Of a stretch of 64,000 nt of DNA, positions 5,017 through 60,108 are shown one piece after another (the first letter of the stretch is position 1; each line of letters begins with the position of its first letter). The notes under the pieces were generated by a model. It ran no database searches. It saw only the letters and a program-made list of their open reading frames with translations, and was not told where the DNA came from. The position numbers were made by a program, and so were the translations under genes. Source of the DNA: Armatimonadota bacterium (GTDB lineage: Bacteria > Armatimonadota > HRBIN16); assembly GCA_963677485.1 (NCBI GenBank), contig OY781964.1:224001-288000 (forward strand). Direction: 5' to 3'.

Positions 5017-5035
5017 CACGGTCTGTCGCCACCAA

Positions 5036-5088
5036 CTCCTGCCTGCACATGCTGTTCTATTTCTTGTCACAGCATGTGCAGGCAGGAG
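5036..5088. promoter_or_regulatory. Perfect 20-bp inverted repeat between two DUF11 genes (mRNA stability or attenuation hairpin)
   Basis: ctcctgcctgcacatgctgt (5036-5055) / acagcatgtgcaggcaggag (5069-5088), 13-nt loop, no U-tract. Confidence 0.6.
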
Positions 5089-5123
5089 CAATCCTGCTGT
5101 CAGTATTGCTCCTGCTTTCAACC

Positions 5124-12300: not shown

Positions 12301-15300
12301 GCGGTTGCGTGCGATGATATTTCCTTGAGTACGCCGGCGTGGACTTGGATACAATAACCGACTGGCAAGGCGTTGTGCCAGATGCGCCTTTTCGGCCGTC
12401 ATCTGCAGGAAGCGCAGCTCAATCTGGCTGTGTGTCCAAGCTAAGGCGAAGGTATGATCGGCATTTGATGTCTGCTCGTAGAACTCCACCAGTTCCATCG
12501 CCTGTTCACGGTCTGTCGCCATGGCTGTGGTGAAGTACACGCTGACCGTTTCGCCGGGTTCGATCCGAATCCGCCGACGTATTGAAAGAATCGGGTCAAG
12601 AACGGCACCCTCGCCGTTGCTGAGCTGGTGATGCCGCTCCATGGCAGCAGGATCGTGAGCATCGCGTCCTCGCCCGATGAATCCCTCACGGCTGGTCTCG
12701 TAGTTCACATAACCGTATGTCTTGCCAGCGAATGCGAAAACATGCACGAGGCATGGAGTGACTTCATTGGGTGTCCGCGGGCGTCTTTTGCATAGTAGCG
12801 CATCTTTTTCCGGTATCTTTTCGGTCTGCACGAATAGTTTGCTAAATGCGGGATGAGCGAGATCCGCCATGAACGGTGCCAGGACGACCTCGCAATAACT
12901 CGTCAGCTCTAGTCGACGCGTCTGGCTGCCGTGATTCGTGAGCGATACTCGCCGCACTTCTGCATTGTGCTCCGGGCTCACGGTCACATCCATATGAGTT
13001 TCAATACCGCCATCGTGACGTATGTACTCCACTCGGTCTGCCGAAAATGTGACGGAGTAGTCTTCAGGCTGCATGACATGCTCAGCCCGATTCTGCCCCA
13101 ACGGTTTACTTGCCGCTGACCAGATTTTGTCATTCTCCAAGTCGCGGATATAGCAGTAGCTACCCCACGAATCGCGTGTCGGGTCAGCACGCCAGCGCGT
13201 CACGGAGACACCATCGCAACTGCTGTATCCCCCTCCGGCTGCGGTGAGCAGCACCGAATAGTGACCGTTTGACAGGAAGTGCCCTTCTGGCTCCGGGGTG
13301 TCAGGAGTTGTGTAACGGCGGGTGATCGGTGCTTCTATCGGACTGCTGATTCGGCAGGCCACATCGTCAGACTGCGGGTCCTCCGTCAGAACCACGTACC
13401 GAGGCAGCCGCTCCTGCAGCAGCAGCTCCGTCGCACGCACCATGGGTTCGGAATGGAATCTTCGCTGCATGATATTGCGCTGCAGCGCATTGGTTATCGA
13501 CAGTAAGGACATCCCCTGGTGATGAGCCATCTCGCTGCGGATGATAACCGACTTGGTGCCAGACGGCAGCCGCTCAGACGTATAATCAAGCGCTTCATAT
13601 AGTCCATACAGGTTTTCCATCCCTTTTGTAATCAGCCTGCGGATGTTGCGCATGGCGACCCCTGGGTCTACAGCCAGAGCCAGCATAGTGGCGTATGGCG
13701 CCACGACATAGTCAGAAGACAGACCTCGCTTCACACCAAGCCCTGGTGTGCCAAACGCCATATAGCTATAGTTCATATGTATATCGCGGGCGTTGAACCC
13801 TGATTCGGAAACGCCCCAGGGAAGGCCTAACTCAGAACCATAGGCCTGTTGCCGCTTCACAACCGCCACATACGTTTCGTCCAGCAGGCAGCCAGGGTAG
13901 TTTCGCATCAGCAACAGCGGCATCAAGTATTCGAACATCGTGCCGCTCCAGGATAACAATGCCCGCATGTTCCCGACCTGAATAAACTTGCGTCCCAGTA
14001 AAAACCAGTGCTTCTCGGGCACATCGCCCTTGGCAATCGCCACAAAACTGGCCATACGCGCTTCAGAGGCTAGCAGGTCATAATAGGCCGCATCGACCTT
14101 CGTATTATCGACCTGGTATCCTATGTGGAACAGGTTGCGTTTGGGATTGTAGAGCAGCGAAAAGTCCATCTCCTCAACACGCCTGGTCAGCCATTCGGTC
14201 AGCGTTTGACAGCGTTCTCGTATATGAATGACTTCATCATGAAGTGAAGGAGCATCAGGAGCCAGCCCCAGCACCAATGCGAGTGTGGTTTCCGGCACAT
14301 GAAGTATCTCCAGAATGCCTTGCTTCAGTGCGATCAGACTGCCTGCCAGGTTGCCGCTATCCACCGTTGAGATATATCGAGGCTCTAGAACGGCCAAGGT
14401 CTGTGTATCATACCAGTTATACCAGTGACCTGAAATACACGGCAGCTTCTGCATGGTATCCACGGTCCGGCAGATTCTATCCAGCATATCCCTCAAGCTG
14501 AGGAAGCCAAGGTCGTAAGCAGCCAACGCTGACAGTAGATACATGCCCATATTGGTAGGTGAAGTCCTATGGGCAACAGTGCCTTCAAGATGAGAGCTGG
14601 CGGTATCGACATGCTCCTGGTAGTTATCAGGCGGAAGGTCGTTGTCATCAGTCCCCACCATATCCGCAAAAAACTGCCAGGTCTTGCGTGCCAGATCGGT
14701 TAATGACTGGCGGTCCCGCTCACTAAGGGTGATGGACCTTGAAACACTCGGGCGGCTTACCAGCCAGGCTATGACGGGCGAAAACAGCCATAACAGCAGC
14801 AATGGCGCCAGCCATGCGAAAGAGGCTGTGTGATATGCCAGTACAGCCACGATAATCAACCCAGCAGACACCGGGGCCGCCCACATCGAGTATATGTAGT
14901 CCCCTACCCCTTTTCGCAGCCGCTGCTCAGCGCTGGCGGCGGTCTCCCACTCCAATAGTTGCCGTTGCGATGTCAACAGCCGCGCGAGCGTGCTTATTAC
15001 AGCGTTGAGCATCACATACGCCTGATGCGGCAGCAACGTGATGGACAGCATCAGTTGACGAAGCATCACACCAAGGTGCGGGAACAGGCGCCGAAAGGCA
15101 CCATTCATGAAGATAGACCAGTTTGTGCGCAGATCATCCGTCACATATATCATGATAGGAAAGGCCAAGGCTAATAACGCGAAACCCAGCCACAGGCCAT
15201 AGCCACCAGGTAAAACAGTCATACCAGCCGTCAGCATGATAAAAGTAGCAGGGGCGACCAGGCTGCGGCGTAGATTGTCCAGTATTTTCCATCGCGAGAT

Positions 15301-17264
15301 GAGCGTGAGTGGGTTGGCAATACGCTCCCCTGCCGCATTCCGCGGAGAAGTCAATAACCATGGCAGGAGCTGCCAGTCGCCGCGGACCCATCGATGAATT
15401 CGCGAAACAGATGCCAGATAGTGCGCAGGATAACTGTCCACCATCTCGATGTCGGTCACCATACCGGCGCGTACATGGGTACCTTCCAGCAGGTCATGGC
15501 TAAGCACGCTGTTTTCGGGCAGTGTACTGTCCAATATAGTGATAAAGGTATCTACATCGTAGATGCCCTTACCCATGTAGATGCCCTCTTGAAACAGGTC
15601 CTGGTAGATATCCGAGACAGCGGTGGGATAAGGATCGACGCCTGTTTGACCGGCATAGATAGAAGCAAACAGTGACCGGCTGGCGCTCGTGACCCCAATG
15701 GTCACCCGCGGCTGCAGCACACCATATCCTTCGATTACCCGTGTATGCGCTTCGTTCATGATCGCCTGGTTCAACGGATGAGCTAATGTGCCAATCAACC
15801 TCTTCGCAGCATCCCTGGGTAGTTGGGTATCTTCATCTAATGTGATGACGAATCGGGTGCCCTGGATGACCGTCAAGTCACCGACGACAGGAATAAAACT
15901 GGTGTCAGTATTGCCCCTTAACAGGCGATTGAACTCCTCAAGCTTGCCGCGCTTGCGCTCCCAGCCCATCCATGTGCCGGCCACAGGGTTCCAGGTGCGT
16001 TTGCGTTGGAACAGGTAAAACACAGTTTCATCACCCGGATACTTCTCATTCAATGCCCGCACGGCCCGCTGTGCATATTCAAGGTGTTCATTCTCATGCG
16101 GTAAACGCTGCTCTGTGGCGTCGGGGAAGTCACTTAGCAAGGCAAAATGCAGATGGCTCTCCATGTTGGCCAGGTAATACACTTCCATCTGGTTCACTAA
16201 TGACTGCGTACGACGGTCATCTATGAGCATGGTATGTATCACCACCACGCTGCGCAGATCCTGCGGGATGCCTTCTTTTAACTCCAGCTTAGGCAAGCGG
16301 CACGGTGGAACTGACCTCATGACAGACCACCCGATCACGTTGATGGCCAAGTCACTGGCTGGTAGGATCATCAACACAAGAGCCCACCACCAGCCTACCG
16401 GATTAGTAGGAGCAGCTAGATACATCATTAACGCTACGATCACGCCAGTGAAGAGGATGATGGCTGCTGGATACAGTGGCGGAGCGATGTGGTCTACCAT
16501 ACGGCCAACATGGTAGAAAACACCAGATGCACGGCCACGCAGACGCACATTCAACTCTTCACGCCCGCGGTCGATTAAGTAAAATCCGATGTGCTGGCGC
16601 TTAATGGGTAAGTCGCCGCGTGTCATCGCCTCCGTGGCAAGCGTGACTACACAATGAGCCACGTCCATCTCGACATTATGTGTTGCTTTAGCAATCGCCT
16701 CAACAGCATGACGGTACCGGTCTCGCGTGGGGAAGTCCATCTGAACATAGGTGCCACAGGGGTCTTCGCGCAGTATCGCATCCATCCGGCTGACACGTTC
16801 GAAGAAGTCTGTCCAGTCGTATTCGGCGATGAACCGAAGGCTGGTGATACAGTTGCTCACAGATGCCAGGTTCGCAGCCTCATCGCTGTGGGTGATTTGC
16901 TTGATGTCGTCAAAGCTCATGTTTTGAAGAGCTAGCCGTTCGTCCAGCCACTTCCAGAGCGGGGTAGCTTGCGGGCCTTGATCCAGGAACCGCTGCAGCA
17001 AATACACCGAAAACACGGGATCGAGCGTGCCCAACAGACTGTCATGTTCGGCGATGATGGCATCAAGTCGGGTCGGGTCGACACTCGCTTCAGCGAATAG
17101 ATGGTCTGCCCACTCATCGGCCATCGCCCGCCGCTGTTGGCCATACACAATCTGTTGGGTGAGGCGCTGAAGGTTCTGCACCAAAGCGATCTGCATCATT
17201 GTCGGCAAAGCCCAGAGTTCGCCGCTAGAGAGGGTCACTTCCGTCTGGTATCCATTGGTAAATC

Positions 17265-25117: not shown

Positions 25118-26350
25118 TTAGTTCAGCCTATGGTCCGAAGACCCAACCCCCACGATCGTCCACTTGCCCTTTTTGGGGACCATTGTGTAGGTGACATATG
25201 CCACCTTGTAATGTTGGTCAGCATCATAAAACTGCTGCTTGGCATATGCGGTGTAAGCCCCATCCGACCTTTTGGCTACTTTATATGGCGCAAACATGAT
25301 CGTACCTGTGTTCCGCATCGCATCTGCAGTCATATCGCGGTAGTCATTACCGGGCATCGAATAAGCATATTTGCCGTCGATGTAGACCGCCACTCTTTCT
25401 GTTGGGGTGATATGCCGCGTAATCGGGATGCCGTTGTCATTTAGCCACGAGCTAAATATGTCGGTTAGCGCTGAGTTAAGGCTCGAATATTGGTCGTTGC
25501 GTTGGTAGCTGCTGTCATAGTATCTGTAGTCGGGTACCGGATAGTATACATAAACTGGCTGCCTCACGATGACAACCCGTTCCGCATTGATGAACAGCAG
25601 CCCATGTGTGTAGTATGGCGCGTTGAAGTGTCGGTACTTCGGCTTGCCGAATGCCCAGCCTCCGTATTTGAACCCTTTTTTGTTACCATAGCCGTCATAG
25701 TAATAATAACCAGTCTGGTAGCGTGGTTTGTGCCACTTCGTGACATACACGGGATTGACCTGTGCTCTCGTGCCCCAGCCCTGCAGAGATTCGCCACGCT
25801 TTGCGCGCTGGTAAGCGGCCATTCCAGACTTGCTGGTAGGTCGTGATTGCTTGCCTGGTCGACTGAGCACGGCATTACCAGTAGCCTTCATGTCCGGGCG
25901 GCCTTGCTGATGAACGCTGGTCTTACCAGACGGCTTCGCAATATTCGTTCGGCCCTTCTGCTGGACACTAGTCTTGCCAGACGACTTCGCAGTATTCTTG
26001 CGGCCTTGTTGGATGCTCGTCTTGCTGGACGATTTCGCAGTATTCCTGCGGCCTTGTTGGACGCTCGTCTTGCCAGACGACTTCGCGGTACTCCGGCGGT
26101 CTTGCTGGACACTCGTCTTGCCAGATGACTTCGCAGTATTCCTGCGGCCTTGCTGGACACTCGTCTTGCCAGATGATTTCGCGGTATTCCGGCGGTCTTG
26201 CTGGACGCTGGTTTTGCCAGACGACTTCGCATCGTCTCCGCCCGATTTGTCTCCACGAGCCATACCCGTCGCTACAACGAACAACACACACATAGAAACT
26301 GCGAACGCAGTCACTAGCAGTGATATCTTCGATTTCATTGTCTTAGGCAT
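25118..26350 (-). CDS. Secreted basic repeat protein with a Tyr-rich segment and an NTF2-like C-terminal domain
   Basis: Signal/TM segment, seven AKSSGKTSVQQ repeats, globular C-terminus; fold call is tentative. Confidence 0.7.
   Translation of the reverse strand: MPKTMKSKISLLVTAFAVSMCVLFVVATGMARGDKSGGDDAKSSGKTSVQQDRRNTAKSSGKTSVQQGRRNTAKSSGKTSVQQDRRSTAKSSGKTSVQQGRRNTAKSSSKTSIQQGRKNTAKSSGKTSVQQKGRTNIAKPSGKTSVHQQGRPDMKATGNAVLSRPGKQSRPTSKSGMAAYQRAKRGESLQGWGTRAQVNPVYVTKWHKPRYQTGYYYYDGYGNKKGFKYGGWAFGKPKYRHFNAPYYTHGLLFINAERVVIVRQPVYVYYPVPDYRYYDSSYQRNDQYSSLNSALTDIFSSWLNDNGIPITRHITPTERVAVYIDGKYAYSMPGNDYRDMTADAMRNTGTIMFAPYKVAKRSDGAYTAYAKQQFYDADQHYKVAYVTYTMVPKKGKWTIVGVGSSDHRLN
25895..26232 (-). repeat. 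Coding tandem repeat, about 7 x 48 bp
   Basis: AKSSGKTSVQQ(D/G)RRNT units, the last two degenerate. Confidence 0.9.
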
Positions 26351-27255: not shown

Positions 27256-27283
27256 AAAACGGCCCGGATAACCGGACCGTTTT
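27256..27283 (-). terminator. Terminator of the prepilin-GRE operon
   Basis: aaaacggtccgg-ttat-ccgggccgtttt on the minus strand. Confidence 0.75.
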
Positions 27284-27327: not shown

Positions 27328-29538
27328 CTAAACCACCTGTTGGGTACGGTTGATGATCATGTCCTGCCACTGTTTATTCAACGTGGCAAAGCGTGCGCTC
27401 CATCCAGCAACACGCACGGACAGGTTGGGATACTTCTCAGGATGCTTTTGGGCGTCCATCAACACCACGGAGTCGACCACATCGATATGCAGGAAACAAC
27501 CACCCATCTTCATGAAGCCCTTTAACAAGCCGACCATGGTTTGGATGCCCTTGTCGCCTTTCACCGAAGATGGCATGACCTTCAGCTCAAACGCACCGAT
27601 ACCGGGCAGGTTCGTGAAGTCCATCTTGCAATAGCTGCACAACGCCGCCGTGGGGCCGTATTTGTCGCTGCCAGGAGACGGCGAGAAGTTGGTTGCCAAA
27701 ATGTCGCCAGCATGGTGACCATCGGCAGTGGCCTTGCGGACAGGGCTCCACTCCAGTTCACGACCAAAAGTGCTGATACCCGCTGGACGGAACACACCTT
27801 TACGGAATTTCGTTTCAGCCACCAACGTGGTAAAGCTGTTGTAAACACGCTCTGCCATGGCGTCAGCCTGGTCGTTGTCATTCCCGTAGGTAGGCACTCG
27901 GCTGGCCAGCAGCCGTCTGAGGCTCTCGTTATCTCGCCAGTCGCTGCGGATGGCCGTTACCAAGTCGTCCCAGCTCACCAGTTTGGTGTCGAAAACCGCC
28001 TGTTTGATCGCCATCAGGCTGTTGGCGGTATCCGCCATTCCGCCGGCATGGCAGGCTAACTGGTAGTATTTCGCCCCGCGGTCGTTATAGTCGGCTGCGT
28101 TCTCGATACAACCTTCCACGAACAGCGAAGGAACCGTAGCGGGACCGCCTCCCACCATCCAGCCATCTGCGATCTCGTGATACCATTTCACGTGGGTGGC
28201 CAGACGCTGTTCAAACGCGGTATATAGTTGATCGAAGTCAGCATATTTCGGTATGGGGTTGGAAGCACTCTGCACGCCCATCACCTCTTGGAGTAGCTGC
28301 AAGGTGTCAAACGGCATATAGGTAAACGCCGTTTTACCAGGAACCAGCACTTCCCAGCATCCGTCATTGGTGAAGTTGCGCGCCTCTTCCAAGGGATATC
28401 CCAACTTCGTCATCGCCTCAATGACCACAGGCTCATTGTAGGTGGCGATAATACCTCCACCCAGCCGCTGAACCTCTGCGATGCGCTTCAGCAACAGCTC
28501 GGGTGATTTTGGGCTCAGACGCACTGCAATTGGGAAGTCACTCATGCGAAGCTCTTCCACCACATCCAGCACGAGGTATGTGACTGGATTGGTGACCTCA
28601 ACACCCTTCTCGTCGATCCCGCCGAGTATGATGTTCTGGTAGAACTGCGCATCGCCGCTGCCAGGCCCCACTGGTTTTGTCCACTCCGCGCCCATTAGCC
28701 AGAAGTGCGCCACCAGCTCGCGGGCCTCGTTCAGGCTGATCTTGCCTGCAGCGAGGTCTTTGGCAAGCAGCGGTCCCAGCATCTTGTCGATGCGTCCGAT
28801 ACCGCTCCAGTTGCCGCACAGCCGGGTCCACGCCCAGGTCAGATGCAATGCCAGCACGCCCTCAAAGAAGGTGGTGGGTGCATGTTCCGGCACCCGCTTC
28901 ATGGCTTCCGCGATCTGGGTGGCCCCTTTGGATGCTGCCAACTCCATATTGCGTTTGTGCCATGCACCATATGCATCGAGACAGATGCGCATTGACTCTA
29001 AATAGTCGCGTTGTTTTGTGCTAAGATTGGTATCTTTGAGGCGCGACATGAGTTTCGCTCGTACGCCGCCCATGCCAGTCCGTAGTGCCTGTTCGTAACC
29101 GAATGTCGTATGGCTCACACTCGACTGGTTGTATAGCGGAACTTGATGCCCGGCAGCTTCGATCACGGTGGCACTGCCGATGAGTCTCATACCCGGTTCA
29201 AATCGCAGCGGAGCATTCTCTGAGATCAGCCGTACGCTCTGGGCATACTTCATATACTCGCTCATGCCCGTGACATCGACTTTGTCTTCCAGCTTAAAGG
29301 GAAGCGATACCATCTCACGCCCCCACTCACCCATCACCGCTTTGGTGGCGAGGCAGATGGTGGCATCACACAGGCGCATCTTGTGGGGTAGAGTGCAGAC
29401 TTGGTTGTTGTTATCAGCCAGACTTGGTGGTGTTATTTTGGCCGTAGAGCTCTCTTTAGCTGAAGTCATTTGTGCGGCACCGATCATACCAGCTCCGATA
29501 GCGGTTGCACCAGATAATAGAAACTTGCGTCGATCCAT
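27328..29538 (-). CDS. Glycyl radical enzyme (PFL superfamily) with a twin-arginine signal peptide
   Basis: MDRRKFLLSG.. Tat motif; GIGRID; Cys loop NDGCWE; Gly loop VRVAGWS; GGAGG RBS. Confidence 0.88.
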   Translation of the reverse strand: MDRRKFLLSGATAIGAGMIGAAQMTSAKESSTAKITPPSLADNNNQVCTLPHKMRLCDATICLATKAVMGEWGREMVSLPFKLEDKVDVTGMSEYMKYAQSVRLISENAPLRFEPGMRLIGSATVIEAAGHQVPLYNQSSVSHTTFGYEQALRTGMGGVRAKLMSRLKDTNLSTKQRDYLESMRICLDAYGAWHKRNMELAASKGATQIAEAMKRVPEHAPTTFFEGVLALHLTWAWTRLCGNWSGIGRIDKMLGPLLAKDLAAGKISLNEARELVAHFWLMGAEWTKPVGPGSGDAQFYQNIILGGIDEKGVEVTNPVTYLVLDVVEELRMSDFPIAVRLSPKSPELLLKRIAEVQRLGGGIIATYNEPVVIEAMTKLGYPLEEARNFTNDGCWEVLVPGKTAFTYMPFDTLQLLQEVMGVQSASNPIPKYADFDQLYTAFEQRLATHVKWYHEIADGWMVGGGPATVPSLFVEGCIENAADYNDRGAKYYQLACHAGGMADTANSLMAIKQAVFDTKLVSWDDLVTAIRSDWRDNESLRRLLASRVPTYGNDNDQADAMAERVYNSFTTLVAETKFRKGVFRPAGISTFGRELEWSPVRKATADGHHAGDILATNFSPSPGSDKYGPTAALCSYCKMDFTNLPGIGAFELKVMPSSVKGDKGIQTMVGLLKGFMKMGGCFLHIDVVDSVVLMDAQKHPEKYPNLSVRVAGWSARFATLNKQWQDMIINRTQQVV

Positions 29539-29619
29539 ATAAGCCTCCCATCATTGAATAGTAAGGGTGTAGTATCACTGGCTCCACATGGGCATACCAT
29601 GTGGAGCCATGTGAACAGG

Positions 29620-30396
29620 CTAGTTGGTGCAGCCTGGCATCACCCAGCCGTCTGGTCGTGCTCCGAAATTCCAAGCTTCCCAGTTACAGGTCAGTGCAGA
29701 CATCTTCTTGTGCCCTGCATGGCCATCGATGTATGAGATGTTGATACCCTCAGTGTGGCGATAGCTCACAATTCCGTTATTCAATCCAATCAGGGTCAGC
29801 TTACCGTCTGTTTTGGAGACAGCATTCCAGCCGTCCCAAGTGCTGCAAAAGTGTGTGTAGAATGTGTCGCTACCTTCAAGCACAGCGATTGTTTGAGTGG
29901 GACTATCAGCGTCATTCTCGCTGACAGGATAGCTGTATTTGCCATTGTATGATGCGTTGGTGCCCTCAGGCCAATGCCAGCCTGGGGTTTCATTCATGGC
30001 GTATGTGGTAGTCATCAAGGAGCCAGGGTAACCGCCAAGATTGGCGATGTACCAATCCACTATCCATTGGGTTTTCGATCTGTCTCTCACTGACGGACAA
30101 ACAAAGATCGATCGTGATTTGGTGTATGGCAGTATTTTGTTACCCCAACTCACGTTATCAATCTTGCCGTCACCTGTGACATCCTGTGACCAATCGTACA
30201 CGCTGACGCAGCTGCCATCGCAATCATCGGCGTAAAGTTTCATAGCCAAACCAATCTGTTTCATGTTGCTTAAACATGCACTCTGTTTGGCCTTCTCACG
30301 TGCTTGAGCGAATACAGGGAATAAGATGGCGGCCAAGATCGCGATGATCGCGATCACCACCAGCAGTTCAATTAGTGTGAACCCGTTGCGCTTCAT
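29620..30396 (-). CDS. Prepilin-type N-methylation / DUF1559 / H-X9-DG protein
   Basis: MKRNG|[52 protein letters not shown]; AGGAG RBS. Confidence 0.93.
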
Positions 30397-30553
30397 TGAT
30401 ATCTCCTGTTGCCGGTATATAGGAAGTAGACCAGCGTATATAATACATTTGCCCCATATAAAGACAAATTGACATAAACAAACTGTGCTAACCATGGAGT
30501 TTCTTGCAAGGATGCAAGGTATTACGCATAATATAAAGCAGGAGATTTCACAA

Positions 30554-31402
30554 ATGCCATATAATTTGCGAGTCATTCTGGGGCCTGAGGTTCAAAGTAT
30601 CTTTGACAATTTCAGTGCCTGCTTTAACATCCGAATCCAGTTTTTCGATTACACTGGGCAGATTCTCAGCGTCGGCCAGAACCGTCCTGAAGAGGTTTAT
30701 TGCCGACTAGTACAGCGGCAACTCTACGGCAAACAGGCATGCACTGATCAAGTGCATACAGCATGTGCCAAAGCCATCAACACGCGCTCGCTTGTCTGTT
30801 ACAAATGCCACGCCGGGTTGGCAGAGGCGATCATCCCGATTTTTCACAACGACCAGTTACTAGGTAAAGTGTTTATCGGTCAGTTCCGCAGTATCGAAAA
30901 GATTCCCGCCAAGGTGCTTGCTGATGCGGAAGAGCGTGGTCTGGGTAGTTCGTTACAGGTCGCTTTTGACGAGTTGCCATATGTACCGCAAGAACGCATG
31001 GACCACATTCTTGGAATACTCAGTACTCTCGTGGGTTACATCATCACACAGCGCATGGTCAGTTTTGAACTCGACAGCGTCGTGCAACAGCTGGTCAACC
31101 TGTTGGATGAGAACATTGCTAGCTCACTGACTCTTCAAGATGCCGCCGAAGCGGTGGGCAAAAGCCCCTCCAGCGTATCTCATCTGTTCCGCAAGCAGTT
31201 TGGGCAGTCGTTCAAGCAGGCGTTCCTGAGCTTCAAGTTGGCCCATGCCGATGTGTTGTTAAAGACCCAATCTGAGATGACGATTAAGCAAATTGCCGAA
31301 GCAGTTGGCTACGATGACCCACTGTATTTCAGTCGGTTGTATAAGAAATACCGCGGGATCACCCCCAGTGCCATTCGGACAGAGGAAGCACCCATCCTTT
31401 AA
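30554..31402 (+). CDS. AraC-family regulator with PocR domain (paralog of 24021..24878)
   Basis: Highly similar sequence: [38 protein letters not shown]. Confidence 0.9.
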
Positions 31403-31475: not shown

Positions 31476-34400
31476 GTGCCTGTAATGCTGCTCTCATCAT
31501 TAATGGTCGCGGTCGTGATGACGCTGATCGCCGTGCTCTTCCTGCCCAGGAAGGCCATGGCCGCCATGAACAACCTGGTATCCAACCCCGGATTTGAACA
31601 GCTTGACGCCAATAACAAGCCGGACGGATGGAGCAGCTTCAACGATCGTGACGCGGCACGCTTTGAGGTGACCAGCGACGAGGTGTTTGCCGGCCGATAC
31701 GCAATGCACCTCAGCACCCCTGAGGTGACTGTTTGGTCACCTTACTTCTCAAAAATGTTGACACTCACCCCCGGTGCCGAATACACCCTGGCAGGATTCT
31801 GCAAGACCCAGCTTAAGGGTGCGGACATGCTGTTCTCACTTCGCGAGGTCAGCTCCGCCGGTCAGAGCGTAGTCTTCCGGGAGGTAGCGGTCCCAGCGGA
31901 GACCGACTGGAAGTTTTTTTCAGCGACATTCAAAGTAGGTGCTGACACCACCTCCGGACAGGTGTTCCTGCTGCTTCGCAACGGTCTGGGCGATGCCTGG
32001 ATAGACGACATCATGCTGGTAGAGGGCAAACCCGCGGAGTTAGCGGAACAAGCCAAGCGGAAACCACAGCCCGCCTTACCTCCACGCAACGTGCCAGTGA
32101 TGACGGTCGGCAGCAACTTAATCACAAATAACCACTTTGAACAGGCGCTGGATGGATGGACTTTTGTACACGGTGATGAGAGCCAAACCGCGGTGGTCGA
32201 CCCCCACGTTGCCTTCACCGGCAGCCGGAGTGCCTGCCAGACCCACAAATCAGGTGGAATACCCGGAAGCTGGCTGTCCTTGAAATCACCCATCGCCGTG
32301 AGATCGGGCTCCGAGTTCGTGCTGTCAGGCTGGCTGCGCACCGAAGGTCACAGCAACTGGACCGGTGTACCCATCGACCGTGCCAAGCGCGACGAAGGAG
32401 CCTGCATCATACTGCAGGTGCAGGATGACAAGAAGCAGGTGATCAGCGAATCCTGGAGCCGCACCTGGCACACGAACGGCCAGTGGCAAAGGGTCCTGAC
32501 ATCGGCCAGAATACCGGTCAACGGCTGGTACATCAACGTGCGGCTTTTCCACGGTGATCTGAAGGGCAAAAGCTGGTGCGATGGAATTCGGTTGGAACTC
32601 ACCGCTGGCACTCCAGACGCAACGCCTGCTTGGCGGCTGCCTCGCGATGTGTATCAAGCCGGACCGCTTCCTCCGGGCTTCACGGGCACAGCCCGTTTGG
32701 CCGCCCGGTCAGGCGATAAAGAGCTGGTCATATTGCTCAGCGCGAAAGATTCCGTCACCTTCCCATTGGTTGACCACTCGGTGCCAGGTAGTTTTCGCAT
32801 CACGGGCTCAGCCCGAGGGAGTGGGACATCAACGCTCATACTGCGCAGTGTGGATGTGTACGGCCACATCCTGGCGGAAACCACAGCACCGCTGGTGTTG
32901 GCGGGCAACTGGTCTGACTGGCAGCATGAATACACCCCTCATGTGGAAGCCGCCTGGTTCACGCTGTCTGCACGCTGTGACACCGGCAAGCTGGAGCTGC
33001 AAGAATTAAGAGCTATCCGCAGCTCCAGCCAAACGCTCCAGCAATACATGGACGCTCCGCCATCCGTGCCCACCCCTACGGCACTGGCACCCAAACAATC
33101 AAGCTTCCCGACGGTGAAGCGGGTGATGCGCGGCAGTGCCCCGCAGATCACTGTCAACGGCAAAACCGTGAACTTCGACCAGTATTGGCATGAGAATGTG
33201 CCGCATGAGCGGGTGATGCAGAGCTGCCGCGGTGGTGACCTGGTAATGGCCGTGATCATGAACAAGCTGGACTGGTCAACAACCCCCGCGACCATCAACA
33301 CGATTGCACTCGACCAGCAGATACAGGCGATACTCCGGCGATACCCTGAGGCCTGGATCACCATCACACCGGACACGACCGCATCTGAACACTCGGACAA
33401 GCCATGGATCGCCAGCAATCCTTCTGAGCGGTATGTGAATGACCTCGGCGAGTCTCAGGTGCCAGGCTACAGCGGGGAGTTGCGCTACTTCCCATCAATG
33501 GCCTCAGAGAAATGGCAGCAGGATGTAGACACTATGCTGCGCAGCTTGGTCAGCCACGTCAAGCAATCCGACTACGCCTCGCGGGTGATCGGGTTTCAGC
33601 TCAGCCCCTACGAGTGGTTCCAGTGGGAATGGATGCGGAGCCGTATAGACATCAGTGAGCCGATGCAGAAGTCCTTCCGCAAGTGGTTAAACGAGAAGTA
33701 TCAGTCCGATACCGCATTGCAGTCGGCATGGGTGGACCCAGCTGTCAGCCTGCAGACGGCGGTGATCCCGAGCCTGCAGCAGCGGCGGGCCACCACCGAT
33801 GGAGTTTTCAGAGACCCGCAAAAACACCAGTCTTCTATCGACTTTTCACGCTTCTATAACGAGCTCATTCCAGAGCTGTTGGCACGGCAAGCCGCGACGG
33901 TCAAACAAGCCGTCGGCAGTCCGATCCTATGCGGAACCTTCTACGGTTACATCACCACGATGATCGACGGCCCATCGCATGAATCGTCTGGGCACCTGGC
34001 GGTCGATAAGCTGCTGAAGTCAAAACAGATTGACTATGTCATTGCACCCAGCGACGGCTACATTTTCGAGCGCGAAATCGGCGGCACCGGCGGGTATATG
34101 ACCACCGCCGACAGTTTCCGGCTGAACAACGTGCTGTGGATGAACCAGCCTGACCACCGCACCCACTGGGCGCCTGACAACCTCGCCCGCACGGAGACCA
34201 CCGTGGAAGACATCCAGCTGTTCCGGCGGGAGTTCGCCCTGAACCTGACAACCCACACCGGCCAGCAGTACCTCGACTTCTCAACGGGCACCGCACTGGG
34301 AGACCGGCGCATCGGCAACGAGCTGGAGCACTACGGACGCATCCGGCAGTTCGCCGCGACCCTCGAACCCGATGTGGATGTCAGCCAGATGGCGGTGGTG

Positions 34401-35240
34401 GTCAGCGAAACGGCAGCCGATGTGATCGGCACCGAAGCCGTGCTGATGGACGGTGCGACCATCTACCACCAACGCCCGCTTTACTACCGCAGCGGAATGC
34501 CCCACTCCACTTGCCTGACCAGCGACCTGTTGAATCCGCAGCTCAACAAGCAGCGTTTATGGGTGTTCCCTAACGCCTGGCGGTTGAGCGCAGACGAGAT
34601 GGCGACCATCAAATCGCAGTGTATGAAGAACGGCAACCTGTTGTTGTTCATGTATGCCCCGGGATATGTCACAAGCAAAGCGTCGACGGACAACATCAGC
34701 AAGCTGTTGGGCATGAAGGTAGTCATCAGGCCCGACCTCAAGGACTCACGCATCACCATCTCGAATGATACCGGCGTCAGTGAGCTGCATGACTCGAAGG
34801 GGATACGCTACGGCCACTCGCCGAAACTCGCCTGGACTCCGCTTTTCGCGGTGGATGACCCTCGGGCGACTGCGCTGGGCCGATACTCAGATGGCCGTGT
34901 GGGACTCGCGATGCGTGAATTCGGCAGCTACCGCGTGGCCTACTCAGCCATCGGCATGATTCCACCGGCACTGCTGCGTGACCTCGGCCGGCTTGCGAAA
35001 GCGCACATCTATGTTGACAGCAACGATGCATTGTATGCCAGTAAGCAGTTCCTGGGTATTCATGCGCGCTCCGAGGGTAGCAAGCGGATCCAGTTGCCCC
35101 GGAAATGCGATGTTTATGACCTGTTCTCACACGAAGTGGTTGTGAAATCCGTCCGTGAGTTCACTGTCACCATGCTCGCATTCACCACACGCCTGTTCTA
35201 TCTTGGGGATGCCAATAAGGCCAGAGGGTTTTTCAAATAG
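31476..35240 (+). CDS. Large secreted glycoside hydrolase-like protein: CBM4/9-like domains plus GH42/beta-galactosidase-like catalytic and trimerization regions
   Basis: Signal peptide; NLVSNPGFE and NLITNNHFE CBM starts; W.DDI motifs; FRKWLNEKY..L..AW segment. Confidence 0.7.
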   Translation: MPVMLLSSLMVAVVMTLIAVLFLPRKAMAAMNNLVSNPGFEQLDANNKPDGWSSFNDRDAARFEVTSDEVFAGRYAMHLSTPEVTVWSPYFSKMLTLTPGAEYTLAGFCKTQLKGADMLFSLREVSSAGQSVVFREVAVPAETDWKFFSATFKVGADTTSGQVFLLLRNGLGDAWIDDIMLVEGKPAELAEQAKRKPQPALPPRNVPVMTVGSNLITNNHFEQALDGWTFVHGDESQTAVVDPHVAFTGSRSACQTHKSGGIPGSWLSLKSPIAVRSGSEFVLSGWLRTEGHSNWTGVPIDRAKRDEGACIILQVQDDKKQVISESWSRTWHTNGQWQRVLTSARIPVNGWYINVRLFHGDLKGKSWCDGIRLELTAGTPDATPAWRLPRDVYQAGPLPPGFTGTARLAARSGDKELVILLSAKDSVTFPLVDHSVPGSFRITGSARGSGTSTLILRSVDVYGHILAETTAPLVLAGNWSDWQHEYTPHVEAAWFTLSARCDTGKLELQELRAIRSSSQTLQQYMDAPPSVPTPTALAPKQSSFPTVKRVMRGSAPQITVNGKTVNFDQYWHENVPHERVMQSCRGGDLVMAVIMNKLDWSTTPATINTIALDQQIQAILRRYPEAWITITPDTTASEHSDKPWIASNPSERYVNDLGESQVPGYSGELRYFPSMASEKWQQDVDTMLRSLVSHVKQSDYASRVIGFQLSPYEWFQWEWMRSRIDISEPMQKSFRKWLNEKYQSDTALQSAWVDPAVSLQTAVIPSLQQRRATTDGVFRDPQKHQSSIDFSRFYNELIPELLARQAATVKQAVGSPILCGTFYGYITTMIDGPSHESSGHLAVDKLLKSKQIDYVIAPSDGYIFEREIGGTGGYMTTADSFRLNNVLWMNQPDHRTHWAPDNLARTETTVEDIQLFRREFALNLTTHTGQQYLDFSTGTALGDRRIGNELEHYGRIRQFAATLEPDVDVSQMAVVVSETAADVIGTEAVLMDGATIYHQRPLYYRSGMPHSTCLTSDLLNPQLNKQRLWVFPNAWRLSADEMATIKSQCMKNGNLLLFMYAPGYVTSKASTDNISKLLGMKVVIRPDLKDSRITISNDTGVSELHDSKGIRYGHSPKLAWTPLFAVDDPRATALGRYSDGRVGLAMREFGSYRVAYSAIGMIPPALLRDLGRLAKAHIYVDSNDALYASKQFLGIHARSEGSKRIQLPRKCDVYDLFSHEVVVKSVREFTVTMLAFTTRLFYLGDANKARGFFK

Positions 35241-38025: not shown

Positions 38026-38088
38026 ACCGCCTCTTCATCGGCTTGGGTTACAATAACCATGGAGAATCGTTGATAAGGGTGTGTGACT

Positions 38089-40872
38089 ATGAGCCGATTG
38101 AGTTGGAACCAGATACGGGCGAATGCTGCCCATTTCGCCGATGAATGGCATGATGCCAGTTACGAACGCGGCGAAACACAGAGCTTTTATAATGACTTTT
38201 TCGAGGTATTCGGAGTGCGCCGGCGCAAGGTGGCCACGTTCGAGGAGCCAGTCAAGAAACTGGGCGGCAGCCAGGGGTTCATTGACCTGTTCTGGAAAGG
38301 CGTGCTGCTGGTAGAGCAGAAAAGCGCAGGCCGTAACCTGACCCTCGCCAAGGAGCAGGCATTACAATATTTCCCAGGCTTGAAGGACTACGAACTGCCC
38401 CGATACATCCTGCTGTGCGACTTCCAAAGCTTCGAGCTTTACGACCTGGATGAACGCACCACCACCTGCTTTGCCTTACCCGATTTTCCGCAGTATGTGG
38501 AGCATTTCGGCTTCATTCTGGGCATCGAAAAGCGCTCCTTCCGCGACCAGGACCCGGTGAACATCCAAGCCTCGGAGCTGATGGGCCGTCTGCACGATGC
38601 ACTGTATGCCTCCGGGTACCGCGGGCATGACCTGGAACATCTGCTGGTGCGGCTGCTGTTCTGTCTGTTCGCCGATGACACGGGCATCTTTGAACCGGTC
38701 GGACTATTCAACGACCTGATCCTGCAGCGCACCAACGATGATGGCTCCGATGTGGGGCCGTGGCTGATGCAGTTGTTTGATGTGCTGAACGAACCGGAGA
38801 CTGAACGGCAGAGCAACCTTGATGAGGATTTGAACGCCTTCCCCTATATCAACGGCAACCTGTTTGCTCAACGGCTCCGTGTGCCTGCCTTCAACGCCCA
38901 GATGCGCGAGATCATGCTGGAGGCCTGCGCCTTCAACTGGGATGCCATCTCGCCCGCCATCTTCGGATCCCTCTTCCAGTCTGTGATGAATGCCGGCCAG
39001 CGACGGGCAATCGGCGCGCACTATACCACCGAGAAAAACATTCTTAAGGTCATCGAACCACTGTTCTTAGATGAGCTCCGGGCCGAATTTACCCGCTTGC
39101 AGGCTCGACGTGATAACAGTCGACGGTCGGCCTTGGAGGCGTTCCACGAGAAGCTGGCAAGTCTGCGATTTTTCGACCCCGCCTGCGGATGCGGTAACTT
39201 TCTGATCATCGCCTACCGGGAACTTCGTGACCTTGAGATGCAGCTCATTCGGGAGTTGAATCCAGCAGGCCAGTTGGTCACAGACATTGACGCCCTGATC
39301 AGGGTGAATGTGCACCAGTTCTACGGCATCGAGATTGAGGAGTTCCCCGCGCGCATCGCCGAGGTAGCGCTGTGGATGATGGACCACATCTGCAACAACC
39401 GGATGTCGTTGGCGATGGGGCAGGTGTTCCTGCGCATCCCGCTCAAAACCTCACCGCACATCCACAACAGCGATGCGTTGGAGCTGGACTGGCAGAGCGT
39501 ACTCCCCGCGGAAGAGTGCAGCTATATCATGGGTAACCCGCCGTTCATCGGGGCGAAGTTCCAGACTGCGGAGCAGCGTCAGCAGGTTCGTGATGTCGCC
39601 CGTCTTGGCGGCAGCGGTGGCACATTGGACTATGTGACCGCATGGTTCCTGAAAGCCAGCGACTACGTGGCGCAGTATGACATCCGCATCGGTTTTGTTT
39701 CCACCAACTCCATCACACAGGGCGAGCAGGTGGCGCAGCTCTGGCCGCTGCTGTTCGAGCGTTACGGCATGGAGATATGCTTTGCACACAGCACTTTCGC
39801 CTGGGGCAGCGACGCCCGGGGCATGGCTCATGTGCATGTGGTGGTGCTGGGTCTGTGCAAGCGGGCCTTTGAGCCGAAGAGCAAGCGGCTGTTCAGCTAC
39901 CCGAGCATACAAGGTGACCCGCTGGAGAGCCGTCACGGCAAGTTGTCACCCTACCTTCTGGACGCCAGCAACCTCGCCAACCCGCATGTGGTGGTTCGTG
40001 AAGAGTCGCGCCCCATCAATGGCTTACCTTTTTTGGTGGTGGGTTCACAGCCAATTGATGGCGGGAACATGATATTTGCACCTGATGAATATAAGGAATT
40101 CGTTAAAGTTGAACCAGCAGCTGAGGGGCTCATTCACCCATTTATCGGTGCCGATGAGTTGATCAATGGCAAAATACGATATATTCTGGCATTGCAAGGT
40201 ACAAACCCTCACCAACTACGCAACATGCCCTACGTAATGGCACGTCTAGAAAGGGTCAGAGGTTTTCGAGCTGAAAGTAAGCGACCCAAAACCAGAGAGC
40301 TTGCCGAAACACCAGCACTTTTTGCCTTTACTACAATACCTTCGGGACCGTTTATGGCGATACCAAAAGTCAGCTCTGAACGAAGAGAATACATACCTTT
40401 CGCCTACTATACTCCTCCGACCATCCCAAGCGACCTGGTGTTTGTTCTTAATCATGCAGAGCCTTGGCACTTTACTCTTCTCACTTCCCGAATGCATATG
40501 GCCTGGCTGCGTGCGGTCGGTGGTCGTTTGAAAAGCGATTACCGCTATTCCGGTGGGATGGTCTACAACACGTTCCCCATACCGGAGCTGACGGACGAAA
40601 GCAGGGCGCGGTTGGGTAACCTTGCGCAGGCCGTGCTGGACGCCCGGGCGCGCTACCCCGAGTGCAGCCTGGCTGATCTATACGACACCCTCTCCATGCC
40701 CACCGAGCTTCGGAAGGCACACAAGGCACTCGACACCGCCGTCGACCGCCTCTACCGCCCAGCCCCCTTCGCGGACGACCGCGAGCGCGTGGAGCACCTG
40801 CTGGCCCGCTACGAGGCCATGACCGCCGGTCTGCTCACCGCCCCCGCGCCCAAGCGGCGCCGGGCGAGGTAG
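38089..40872 (+). CDS. Type IIL (MmeI-like) restriction-modification enzyme
   Basis: PD-ExK IDLFWKGVLLVEQK; motif I FDPACGCGNF; motif IV GNPPF; TNSITQGEQV; SLADLYD..LRKAH C-terminus. Confidence 0.93.
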   Translation: MSRLSWNQIRANAAHFADEWHDASYERGETQSFYNDFFEVFGVRRRKVATFEEPVKKLGGSQGFIDLFWKGVLLVEQKSAGRNLTLAKEQALQYFPGLKDYELPRYILLCDFQSFELYDLDERTTTCFALPDFPQYVEHFGFILGIEKRSFRDQDPVNIQASELMGRLHDALYASGYRGHDLEHLLVRLLFCLFADDTGIFEPVGLFNDLILQRTNDDGSDVGPWLMQLFDVLNEPETERQSNLDEDLNAFPYINGNLFAQRLRVPAFNAQMREIMLEACAFNWDAISPAIFGSLFQSVMNAGQRRAIGAHYTTEKNILKVIEPLFLDELRAEFTRLQARRDNSRRSALEAFHEKLASLRFFDPACGCGNFLIIAYRELRDLEMQLIRELNPAGQLVTDIDALIRVNVHQFYGIEIEEFPARIAEVALWMMDHICNNRMSLAMGQVFLRIPLKTSPHIHNSDALELDWQSVLPAEECSYIMGNPPFIGAKFQTAEQRQQVRDVARLGGSGGTLDYVTAWFLKASDYVAQYDIRIGFVSTNSITQGEQVAQLWPLLFERYGMEICFAHSTFAWGSDARGMAHVHVVVLGLCKRAFEPKSKRLFSYPSIQGDPLESRHGKLSPYLLDASNLANPHVVVREESRPINGLPFLVVGSQPIDGGNMIFAPDEYKEFVKVEPAAEGLIHPFIGADELINGKIRYILALQGTNPHQLRNMPYVMARLERVRGFRAESKRPKTRELAETPALFAFTTIPSGPFMAIPKVSSERREYIPFAYYTPPTIPSDLVFVLNHAEPWHFTLLTSRMHMAWLRAVGGRLKSDYRYSGGMVYNTFPIPELTDESRARLGNLAQAVLDARARYPECSLADLYDTLSMPTELRKAHKALDTAVDRLYRPAPFADDRERVEHLLARYEAMTAGLLTAPAPKRRRAR

Positions 40873-41223: not shown

Positions 41224-42600
41224 TCACACCTCCACGGTGATCGGTCCAGCGGCTGACCAGTCACCCTGCGGCGAGTCCTCGCCGGGTAGCTTCGTCTTGG
41301 TGTCGGGCCAGGGCTCAAGCCGGCCTGTCAGCAGCGGGTCGTCCGTCTGCTCCATCCAGCGTTGCAAACGGCCCCGCATCTCAACCAAAACATCCGCATA
41401 TGAAACATCCGATGCGCAGTTGCAGGCCTCATTGGGATCAAACACCAGGTCATACAGCTCCTCAGTCACCTGAGCCCGATGGTCCCAGTCCGCTTGCCGG
41501 AGTAAAGTTTTGGTGACACTGTCATCGCAGTTAGGCAGCACCGGACCCTCTTGTGGCGTAAACCGGCGGATGTAGTTGTATCGTAGAGTCCGCACCGAGC
41601 GCATCGGCTCCGCGGCAGCGTGCCAGTTTACCTCCGCAAAGGCCTCATCACGTATCGTGTCGCCTGCACTGACCATTGGCATGAGCGAGGAACCTTCAAG
41701 CCAGTCGGGAGCCGTTAAGCCAGCCACCTCGCAGATGGTGGGGAACAGATCCACATGGCTGACCAGCCCGTCCATCACACGGCCGCCGTGCAGCCCGGAG
41801 GTCTGGTAGCGCATCATCAGCAGCACCCCTGTGCCGTGACTGGTCAGGTTGCACTTCATCAGCGGATAGGCGATGCCATGATCGGTGGTGATGACCACCA
41901 GGGTGTTGTGCGCCAGACCAGCCAGCTTCAGTGCCTCCAACACTCGCCCGACGCAGGCATCCAGCCTGTACGCCGCCACCCTAAAATCGGCAAAATCCTG
42001 CCTGACCTCAGGTGTGTCCGGCAGCGGAGCTGGAGGCCGCACGTAACGGGCATCGCCTTCCGGCGCATGGCGCGTGGTATGCCACTGCTCGCCGTCACCC
42101 ATCCGGTGCGTCAGCATGAACCCGCAGTCCAGGAAAAACGGCTGTTGGCCATCGGACTTCAGAATGTAGTCACAGGCCGCCTGGGCAAACCAGTCGTTCT
42201 GAGACTCAAAGTCGTTTACCCAGACGGGAGGGTTCTCCGTATACAACAGTCTGTCATAGCCCAGATCAGGCAGTCTCTCAGCTGATGCCACATGCTGCAC
42301 ACCGGCCAACGCGGTGGCGTAGCCATTCGTCTTCAGGAAGCTTGCCAGGTGGTGCGAAGGCTCTGTCAGCCGTCCACCAAGGTGGGCCAAAGCCACCATA
42401 CCGTTCTGATGGGGATACTGGCCTGTGAGCAGCGATGCGCGGCTGGGAGAGCAAGTTGGGGCGGCACTGTAGGCGTTACGAAACAGCACACTTTGCTCAG
42501 CAAAGCGTTGAAGGTTCGGGGTTTTGACCGCATATCCATATGGCTGGATATACCGGCCGGTATCATGAGAATGAATATAGATGACGTTCGGATGGCCCAT
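41224..42600 (-). CDS. Sulfatase (formylglycine-dependent, sulfamidase-like)
   Basis: PNVIYIHSHD, CSPSRASLLTG, TTDHG, EELYDL. Confidence 0.92.
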   Translation of the reverse strand: MGHPNVIYIHSHDTGRYIQPYGYAVKTPNLQRFAEQSVLFRNAYSAAPTCSPSRASLLTGQYPHQNGMVALAHLGGRLTEPSHHLASFLKTNGYATALAGVQHVASAERLPDLGYDRLLYTENPPVWVNDFESQNDWFAQAACDYILKSDGQQPFFLDCGFMLTHRMGDGEQWHTTRHAPEGDARYVRPPAPLPDTPEVRQDFADFRVAAYRLDACVGRVLEALKLAGLAHNTLVVITTDHGIAYPLMKCNLTSHGTGVLLMMRYQTSGLHGGRVMDGLVSHVDLFPTICEVAGLTAPDWLEGSSLMPMVSAGDTIRDEAFAEVNWHAAAEPMRSVRTLRYNYIRRFTPQEGPVLPNCDDSVTKTLLRQADWDHRAQVTEELYDLVFDPNEACNCASDVSYADVLVEMRGRLQRWMEQTDDPLLTGRLEPWPDTKTKLPGEDSPQGDWSAAGPITVEV

Positions 42601-48139: not shown

Positions 48140-49255
48140 ATGCAGTCAACTAGTACAGGCCAGACAGCCGTTTTCGCAGGTGCAGCACAACCGCTTGAGC
48201 TCCGCTCCTATCCTGTCATGGAGCCTGATGCCCACACCACTCGGCTTCGTTTAGCCTACAGCGGAATCTGCGGCACGGATGTTCACATCGCCGAAGGCAG
48301 GCTGGCGATGCCGGCAGGCTGCATTCCCGGTCATGAATTTGTGGGGATCATCGAAGCGATCGGTGAAGGCACCGCTACAGATGCACTGGGGCAACCAATC
48401 AAGCCCGGTGACGCCGCTATTGCCTGCATCGCCGTGCCCTGCGGTAAGTGCTTCAATTGCTTGAATGGCGGATCCGCCAACTGCCTGAACTTCGGATTAA
48501 CAAACTCCCAGGATGCCTCCGTGGCACCGCACTTTCATGGAGGGTATGGCGAGTTTCTATTCCACCCCACCCAGAAACTGGTGCTGATCCCTGAAGGCAT
48601 CGATCTGGCTGCAGCGGCAGCTTTCCCGTGTGCAGGCCCGACTATCATACAGGCCTTCATGAACGCTGGCCCGTTGCAGGCGGGTGAACTGGTGGTGGTG
48701 CAAGGCACTGGGCCGGTTGGTCTTTTTGCCATCGCATGGGCTTCGGCAGCGGGCTGTGTGGTAGCCGCCATCGGCTCATCATCGAACCCAGAACGCATGG
48801 AAATGGCGAAGTCTTTAGGGGCAACTCTCGTATGGGACCGCCGCACCAGCACTCCAGAACAGCGCCTGTCCGATGTACAGAAGATGGCCAAGGAGCTAAA
48901 CCGTGGTGACGGAGCCGATGTGGTGATCGAAGCCTCGGGAGCTCCCAGTGCGATCCCAGAAGGTCTCAATCTGGTGCGCACCCGTGGACGCTACCTGGTG
49001 CCAGGCCAGTATTCCCTCAGCGGTGCTGTGGAGATACAGCCGCAGCTCATTACCTTTAAGGCGATCCAGATCAGCGGGAGCAGCCAGTATACAATCGCCG
49101 ACCTGGGCACATACGTGCAGTTCCTGCAGAATCACCCTGAACTGTATGCGGCCTTTGCCAGCACGATCACCCACAGGTATGCCATTTCGGAAGTCAACAC
49201 CGCTCTAGCAAACGCTAGCCAGGGCAAATCCATCAAGGGAGTATTTGTCGCATGA
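48140..49255 (+). CDS. Zinc-dependent alcohol dehydrogenase (MDR family)
   Basis: GICGTD, GHE, CGKCFNC..C, GTGPVG. Confidence 0.92.
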   Translation: MQSTSTGQTAVFAGAAQPLELRSYPVMEPDAHTTRLRLAYSGICGTDVHIAEGRLAMPAGCIPGHEFVGIIEAIGEGTATDALGQPIKPGDAAIACIAVPCGKCFNCLNGGSANCLNFGLTNSQDASVAPHFHGGYGEFLFHPTQKLVLIPEGIDLAAAAAFPCAGPTIIQAFMNAGPLQAGELVVVQGTGPVGLFAIAWASAAGCVVAAIGSSSNPERMEMAKSLGATLVWDRRTSTPEQRLSDVQKMAKELNRGDGADVVIEASGAPSAIPEGLNLVRTRGRYLVPGQYSLSGAVEIQPQLITFKAIQISGSSQYTIADLGTYVQFLQNHPELYAAFASTITHRYAISEVNTALANASQGKSIKGVFVA

Positions 49256-57591: not shown

Positions 57592-57902
57592 GTGGTGTAT
57601 CACATCATCACCATTATGTTGAATCGGAAACAATCGAAAGCAGAAGTGTTGAGTTGTCGGTTGCTTGCCAGGTCGGGCGAACCATAGGCATATCATGTAA
57701 CCTACACACCCATCTTCTCGATGAGTGTTTAGGTTGCGGTATGATTGAATATCCCAAAATGTTGGCTGCGCAGGCCAGGATGGCAAGTGGGCGATGATTT
57801 ATGTGGCTAAGCTTTATATCAACATGAGCGATGTTGATATAGTAATAAGGACGTAAAAACTACGAACTATTGCCCAACTATACATATGCATGGAGTAGTG
57901 AC

Positions 57903-59966: not shown

Positions 59967-60108
59967 CAGCCCCAACCGCCCGCATGTAGCAATGCAACTG
60001 GTATTTGTAGCATAATACTGGTATCCGGTGACCATTCTATTTCAGCCATCATTAACTCCATTGAACGTTTTGAGTGACGCATCGGCCATCTTTCGGAGGT
60101 GTTTTCAT

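Follow-up and report, generated by a model that had tools for sequence, protein, structure and literature searches.

Can an enzyme built around a protein free radical work outside the cytoplasm? The question is raised by a gene on the reverse strand of a 64,000-nucleotide stretch of an Armatimonadota genome (GenBank assembly GCA_963677485.1, contig OY781964.1, hereafter C1, positions 224,001 to 288,000), to which we refer as the window. The gene (27328..29538 of the window) encodes P0001, a 736-residue homolog of the glycyl radical enzymes (GREs) identified from the open reading frame (ORF) list, its translation, Pfam, AlphaFold2 and Foldseek, and its first residues have the form of a signal for the twin-arginine translocation (Tat) pathway. 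To our knowledge, all characterised GREs are cytoplasmic or reside in microcompartments. Their dependence on a cytoplasmic activase of the radical S-adenosylmethionine (SAM) type and their destruction by oxygen are the reasons why they have been regarded as strictly intracellular. On balance, and with modest confidence, we read P0001 as an eliminase-type GRE that would be activated in the cytoplasm, exported folded by Tat and act on glycan-derived substrates in the periplasm.

Gene, fold and catalytic residues

The gene is intact, with 736 codons from an ATG start and a translation that opens with MDRRKFLLSGATAIGAGMIGAAQMTSA / MDRRKFLLSGATAIGAGMIGAAQMTSAKE. A Shine-Dalgarno-like GGGAGG read from the sequence (29544..29549, reverse strand) stands 5 nucleotides 5' of the ATG, and an in-frame stop four codons 5' of the same ATG makes a start further upstream impossible.

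Two Pfam domains place the product in the GRE superfamily, a PFL-like domain (PF02901, residues 126-586, 308.8 bits against a cut-off of 24.3) and a C-terminal Gly_radical domain (PF01228, residues 615-717, 76 bits against 22.2). The AlphaFold2 model, made with 63 homologs, reaches a mean predicted local distance difference test (pLDDT) of 87.8 and a predicted TM-score of 0.88, and Foldseek matches it to GRE eliminases, dehydratases and lyases alike, at query TM-scores (TMq) of 0.80-0.84 and 21-24% identity. Residues 1-48 fall below a pLDDT of 50 and are disordered in the model.

The best solved relatives in sequence are HypD, the trans-4-hydroxy-L-proline dehydratase (6vxc, 1.7e-67), followed by diol and glycerol dehydratases. 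Against these relatives the Cys loop of P0001 aligns with GCVE and its glycine loop with RVAGYS. The Cys loop, D392-G-C394-W-E396 (28351..28365, reverse strand), was aligned to that of HypD, and C394 falls on the Cys of GCVE in both HypD and diol dehydratase. The first-pass annotation, made from the letters alone, had described the catalytic Cys in DGCWE as intact, as it proves to be at residues 392-396. C394-W-E396 supplies the Cys-x-Glu motif of the GRE 1,2-eliminases (glycerol and diol dehydratases, HypD, CutC, IslA). The glycine loop, R709-V-A-G712-W-S714 (27397..27414, reverse strand), holds the predicted glycyl-radical site. The same annotation was right about this loop at residues 709-714 and wrong to call it a variant, as the Trp is the norm in 118 of 121 family proteins; it also fits RVxG[FWY], which we take to be the glycine-loop fingerprint of GREs. 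Model and alignments together indicate that P0001 has the fold and the Gly/Cys/Glu triad of eliminase-type GREs.

Its resemblance to any one characterised enzyme is limited. Glycerol dehydratase (1r8w) and 1,2-propanediol dehydratase (5i2g, 9rcp) share the ten-stranded barrel with P0001 (TMq 0.80-0.83), the same C-terminal glycine loop and the Cys-x-Glu loop, with sequence matches of 1e-64 to 3e-66. P0001 differs from them in an identity of only 24%, in the Trp that follows both the Cys and the Gly and in its Tat-type leader, and they act on small diols in the cytoplasm or in microcompartments, unlike the role proposed for P0001. As the profile is matched only from position 147 of 647 onward, P0001 has a shorter and different N-terminal region. 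HypD aligns residue for residue at both loops and, unlike P0001, has no signal. The 1,5-anhydroglucitol- and 1,5-anhydromannitol-6-phosphate dehydratases YbiW/PflD (8id7, 8id0; TMq 0.82-0.83) are GRE eliminases on sugar derivatives; they are cytoplasmic, take phosphorylated substrates and share 21% identity with P0001. Among the NCBIfam models P0001 comes nearest to those of PFL2-3/dehydratases and yet stays far under every curated cut-off: 309 against 678 for TIGR01774, 299.9 against 1100 for the HypD equivalog, 220 against 1050 for CutC and 227-228 against 1000 for the sulfopropanediol dehydratases. It is thus not a member of any characterised equivalog.

A word-indexed search returned 1708 proteins at E<=1e-10 among 8000 candidates scored, and P0001 with the 120 matches listed (121 proteins) was taken as the family set. 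DGCWE occurs in 121/121 of these and R[VI]xGW in 118/121; the DGCWE columns of the Cys loop, G712 and W713 are invariant in the family alignment (A1). In a FastTree phylogeny, from which one 620-residue fragment was dropped and which carries Shimodaira–Hasegawa (SH)-like support rather than bootstraps, the 120 proteins of at least 660 residues form one clade on a long stem (SH-like support 100), to which six further PFL-like paralogs encoded in the genome of P0001 do not belong. When 1.84 billion cluster representatives were searched exhaustively with HMMER, full-length family representatives scored 490 bits or more and other GREs no more than 334 bits, leaving a gap between the two; an ESM Atlas search returned generic GRE clusters only. 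By these sequence comparisons, P0001 belongs to a distinct and uncharacterised GRE subfamily. At E<=1e-120 a member is found in 30 of 301 sampled genomes of the phylum (20 of 159 genera), and the source names of the homologs include Armatimonadota, Chthonomonadales, Hydrogenedentes, Phycisphaerae, Sedimentisphaeraceae, Prolixibacteraceae and Sumerlaeia.

The leader and its conservation

Codons 1-29 (29452..29538, reverse strand) were assigned to a Tat-type signal peptide by inspection and by conservation in orthologs. The leader reads D-R-R-K-F-L-L, then LLSGATAIGAGMIGAA, then T-S-A before K30; its uncharged stretch is 16 residues long, and the cleavage site was placed by eye. Codons 30-48 (29395..29451, reverse strand) form a low-complexity linker to the folded domain, in line with the low pLDDT of this part, and the conserved core begins near L-P-H-K-M-R-L, the counterpart of the P-x-R-L-S anchor of the family.

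Conservation of the RR motif in orthologs had been suggested as a check on export. The scan rule used for it was RR-x-hydrophobic-hydrophobic followed by at least 12 residues without Asp, Glu or Lys. Applied to the 120 family proteins, it assigns a Tat-type N-terminus to 82 and none to 36, with two ambiguous, probably through mis-called starts. The control consisted of the 150 best representatives at 50% identity, 128 of which are other GREs and 22 of which carry the family motifs; a single one of the 128 matched the rule. Two of the 22 matched, a low count because many Tat forms collapse into few clusters at 50% identity. By the comparison of 82/120 with 1/128, the Tat-type leader of the family is, at the level of sequence, more than chance. 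Measured as medians, the RR pair is 8 residues away from the annotated start and precedes the anchor by 48, and RR pair, hydrophobic region and small-x-small site are intact in 82/82 signal-bearing members. Profile searches agree in part: Pfam TAT_signal (PF10518) matches 30 of 63 aligned family members at E<=1, and family member L027 passes TIGR01409 with 21.2 bits against a cut-off of 16.7. P0001 itself matches neither profile, so that its Tat call rests on inspection and on homology to the members that pass.

Could the signal be an annotation artefact, with translation beginning at M18, M24 or a later Met? Downstream in-frame ATGs do exist, yet we regard this explanation as almost certainly wrong. 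Across five orthologs and paralogs, codons 1-22 show 39 codons changed synonymously against 14 changed non-synonymously, the latter conservative, a pattern which implies that the leader is translated and under constraint; purifying selection acts on the signal region of P0001. The leader is conserved across phyla, and GGGAGG precedes the first ATG at close range. The first-pass annotation had described a ribosome-binding site, MDRRKFL and a hydrophobic stretch, which correspond to the GGGAGG and the leader MDRRKFLLSGATAIGAGMIGAAQMTSAKE found here. It had also allowed for a true start further downstream and for orthologs without the N-terminal extension; the GGGAGG and the synonymous changes back the first ATG, and the orthologs retain the extension.

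The leader is not a fixed part of the enzyme. The genome of P0001 and those of two congeners each encode three subfamily members. Two of the three bear the leader; the third lacks it, starts with MGIADLT and is itself conserved, and two Firmicutes family loci are leaderless as well. The leader therefore behaves as a detachable targeting module. Its presence and absence on the tree require about 10 changes, six to seven of them forced by supported branches, and since the more divergent representatives are leaderless, the signal appears to be a derived trait inside the family. Immediately ahead of the radical Gly, 79 of 80 Tat forms have Ala and 26 of 35 leaderless forms have Ser; as an independent co-variation with the signal this was rejected, with about 2-3 pairs changing the same way and a median p of 0.5. 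Beyond the family, an RR-type leader is also present in P0258, a distant GRE representative whose loops read GCEE and RVGGF. By their sequences, GREs may have acquired export signals on more than one occasion.

Radical maturation

The window, C1:224001-288000, contains none of the 27 Radical_SAM matches of the 5.22-Mb single-contig genome and no activase-like match, and here the first-pass annotation, which had seen no radical-SAM gene in the window, agrees with the genome-wide count. Its remark that no activase is in the neighbourhood is true of the P0001 locus and amounts to a peculiarity of the genus. We compared 29 loci around family members, 28 of them distinct (L071 duplicates L028), 21 with the signal and seven without. 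A GRE activase of about 300 residues lies directly downstream in 11 of the 21 signal-bearing loci (ten found by script, and L066, whose activase ORF is over-extended, by hand) and in one of the seven leaderless loci. Three downstream activases that were scanned score 308-326 bits with TIGR02494 (cut-off 174), and seven more were confirmed by tblastn. Where the family locus has no adjoining activase, the genome encodes one elsewhere in five of five cases. The genome of P0001 has one full-length activase (C1:5192198-5193010, 353 bits), beside a canonical 792-residue GRE and 40-45% identical to the family-linked activases; a remnant with an internal TGA stop is found at C1:5196484-5196816.

The lack of an activase in the window would suit an exported GRE fold that carries no radical and, once in the periplasm, binds sugars or catalyses a non-radical reaction. 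The periplasm has neither SAM nor a reductant, as is generally known, making repair of a radical there impossible, and non-radical derivatives do occur, as the RVxG loop is no longer present in two of the nine PFL-like paralogs of this genome. The signal-bearing lineages nevertheless make this explanation improbable. At 50-60% identity, Gly712, Cys394 and Glu396 are invariant across them, the glycine loop being present in 80 of 82 signal-bearing members and DGCWE in 82 of 82, and a dedicated activase adjoins about half of the signal-bearing loci compared. Taken together, the invariant residues and the activase linkage argue that the exported forms are genuine radical enzymes. The first-pass annotation had left two possibilities side by side; the conserved triad and the 11 of 21 activase-linked loci lend more support to the pre-activated radical enzyme in the periplasm, and the same data disfavour its second, a repurposed non-radical fold.

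If the radical is genuine, it could in principle be installed on either side of the membrane. Export of an unactivated P0001 followed by activation outside the cytoplasm would call for an exported activase, and we find this very unlikely. All 12 of the 12 family-linked activases start at their FDIQRF...CxxxCxxC core and carry no leader, which by sequence would make them cytoplasmic; the activase of the genome matches TIGR02494 from the first position of the profile inside a 296-residue open frame; and SAM together with a low-potential reductant is, as general knowledge has it, not known in the periplasm.

The sequence of events that we favour would begin with the folding of the P0001 precursor in the cytoplasm, where the activase encoded at C1:5192198-5193010 would install the radical on Gly712. 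The Tat system, with TatC and two TatA proteins, would then export the folded, radical-bearing P0001, and the signal would be cut near T-S-A29. In the periplasm the radical would move from Gly712 to Cys394. By analogy with the solved eliminases, the thiyl radical would abstract a hydrogen next to a hydroxyl, Glu396 would deprotonate that hydroxyl and the neighbouring leaving group would be eliminated.

Export, genomic context and significance

The machinery for such a route is encoded in the genome, with one TatC (206.5 bits) and two TatA-type matches to TatA/B/E (64 and 62 bits), and TatC was found in five of five other genomes tested. RR leaders were also sought genome-wide with a crude scan; of its 27 matches, only some are convincing. 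Two convincing ones closely resemble that of P0001 and belong to an NPCBM+Melibiase protein and to a CBM_4_9/arabinofuranosidase-like protein.

Several loci of the homologs have an extracytoplasmic glycan setting. In L029 the order is SusC-SusD-GH97-GRE-activase, in L033 the GRE stands beside GH77 and an IclR regulator, and in L031 and L063 the GRE and its activase are followed by a sulfatase with a Tat signal. Variants of the family with a Laminin_G_3 insertion have the signal in 13 of 13 cases. When neighbouring genes were clustered, first for 20 loci and later for 29, no conserved partner besides the activase emerged; DUF1559 proteins, IclR or AraC regulators, sulfatase, GFO_IDH_MocA and Amidohydro_2 recur patchily.

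At the P0001 locus itself, a DUF1559 gene with a prepilin-type N-methyl motif (pilin-like; 29620..30396, reverse strand; Pfam N_methyl and SBP_bac_10, translation) lies on the same strand 81 nucleotides upstream. Its listed ORF extends to 30576, and its likely start is the Met before the N-methyl motif. Divergent from this pair is a gene for a PocR-sensor/AraC-type regulator (30485..31402, forward strand; PocR 96 bits, HTH_AraC). The DUF1559-GRE order and the divergent regulator are both kept in the two closest relatives, L021 and L022. Next comes a gene for a 1254-residue exported protein (31476..35240, forward strand) that combines a hydrophobic leader with CBM_4_9 and a weak GH42-like match; its paralog lies about 4 kb from the genome's second Tat-GRE copy. 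Downstream of P0001 are a second PocR/AraC regulator and genes for an isomerase, an FGGY kinase and a class-II aldolase. Just past the stop codon stands a weakly evidenced terminator-like hairpin (27260..27274, reverse strand); the count of such hairpins in the region equals the chance expectation. The other two subfamily paralogs of the genome have mostly housekeeping or unrelated genes around them. Overall, the gene neighbourhoods suggest as substrate a sugar or oligosaccharide of glycan origin, perhaps sulfated, whose processing takes place outside the cytoplasm; judged from its sequence, P0001 probably acts in the periplasm, on compounds derived from sugars.

A doubtful yet more serious alternative keeps P0001 in the cytoplasm as an activase-dependent GRE, its RR peptide serving for docking of a chaperone or activase or for tethering to the membrane. 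NarG, with its vestigial Tat motif, would be a parallel. The failure of the P0001 N-terminus in both Tat-signal hidden Markov models fits this alternative, as do the location of all characterised GREs, as generally known, and the leaderless family members, which evidently work without the peptide. Against it, the RR pair, hydrophobic region and small-x-small site are kept without exception in the signal-bearing members, the modelled leader does not touch the folded domain, and leaders of the same type stand on glycosidases with carbohydrate-binding modules in the same genome. The neighbours, moreover, are genes of polysaccharide utilization loci, Tat-sulfatases and other exported proteins, and the single-contig, 97% complete genome holds no microcompartment shell gene (no PF00936 match). 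Targeting of P0001 to a microcompartment was likewise rejected, on the missing shell gene and on a leader that is RR-bearing and hydrophobic rather than amphipathic. Among the alternatives to export of an activated enzyme, we rank the cytoplasmic enzyme with a non-exporting leader first, followed by the exported non-radical protein, activation outside the cytoplasm and, last, a downstream start.

Several points weigh against export of an activated P0001. For this protein we infer export, the radical, activation before export, the cleavage site and the substrate. Its N-terminus has no match to Pfam TAT_signal at E<=1 or to TIGR01409 at E<=10, the former profile misses more than half of the aligned family, and 36 of 120 close homologs are without the signal, some of them probably owing to mis-called starts. 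The window has no activase, and the one in the genome would have to serve up to seven paralogs with the glycine loop. No dedicated Tat chaperone was seen, and none was searched for. Two [FeFe]-hydrogenase-type genes and one heme-copper oxidase suggest a fermentative organism that may meet oxygen; with the oxidase, exposure to oxygen is possible, and a radical quenched after export could not be restored. As no partner but the activase is conserved, the substrate is a guess.

Other genes of the window were recorded along the way. At 48140-51351 (forward strand), a second GRE paralog of 699 residues, with RVSGFS and GCIE loops and without a signal, overlaps by ATGA with the stop of a zinc-type alcohol dehydrogenase gene; from their sequences the two look like a cytoplasmic dehydratase and reductase pair. 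A 410-residue protein (25118-26350, reverse strand) has a hydrophobic leader, about seven tandem 16-residue repeats resembling AKSSGKTSVQQGRRNT and no Pfam or NCBIfam match. A sulfatase (41224-42600, reverse strand) is matched by Pfam from residue 4, so the ORF as called is without a signal peptide. The window also holds a complete MmeI-type restriction-modification enzyme with all five MmeI domains (38083-40872, forward strand) and a SIR2_2-domain protein (57870-59663, forward strand) in a stretch of low GC content (43-47%), a protein that could be part of a defence island. An 854-residue ORF (60028-62592, forward strand) joins an SBP_bac_1 solute-binding domain to a BPD_transp_1 ABC permease domain, and two very large ORFs occupy 1-5121 (more than 1707 residues, with an open end) and 9418-17238 (2606 residues), both on the reverse strand.

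Full-text literature searches, with subscription journals and supplements outside their scope, returned no report of a Tat-bearing or periplasmic GRE. Among the matches PMC9324843, PMC9719856, PMC13027841 and PMC13131666, the passage matched in a paper on DyP-PFL fusions does not concern GRE export, and the others are reference-list entries.

The order of events proposed here has parallels among other exported enzymes. Molybdoenzymes and [NiFe] hydrogenases are matured in the cytoplasm and then exported by Tat, and sulfatases are modified by a radical-SAM maturase before their export. These systems share with the P0001 scheme an oxygen-sensitive or radical-SAM maturation in the cytoplasm that precedes export. 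The scheme differs in that the exported 'cofactor' would be a protein free radical, which is not renewable outside the cytoplasm.

More tentatively, and a little short of even confidence, we suggest that a protein radical may be put in place in the cytoplasm and pass the Tat pore with its enzyme, which would provide anaerobic diderm bacteria with a radical eliminase that acts in the periplasm on complex or sulfated glycans and needs no oxygen. If true, both the carbohydrate-active enzymes and the Tat cargoes would gain a new kind of member, and the known range of the latter would widen. In organisms that lack microcompartments, export may in addition protect the cytoplasm from reactive carbonyl products. 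Whether a glycyl radical survives export, and whether radical chemistry takes part in the anoxic breakdown of glycans in the periplasm, thereby become testable questions. The subfamily is a candidate for oxygen-independent steps of polysaccharide degradation in Armatimonadota, Hydrogenedentes, Phycisphaerae/Sedimentisphaeraceae and Bacteroidota.

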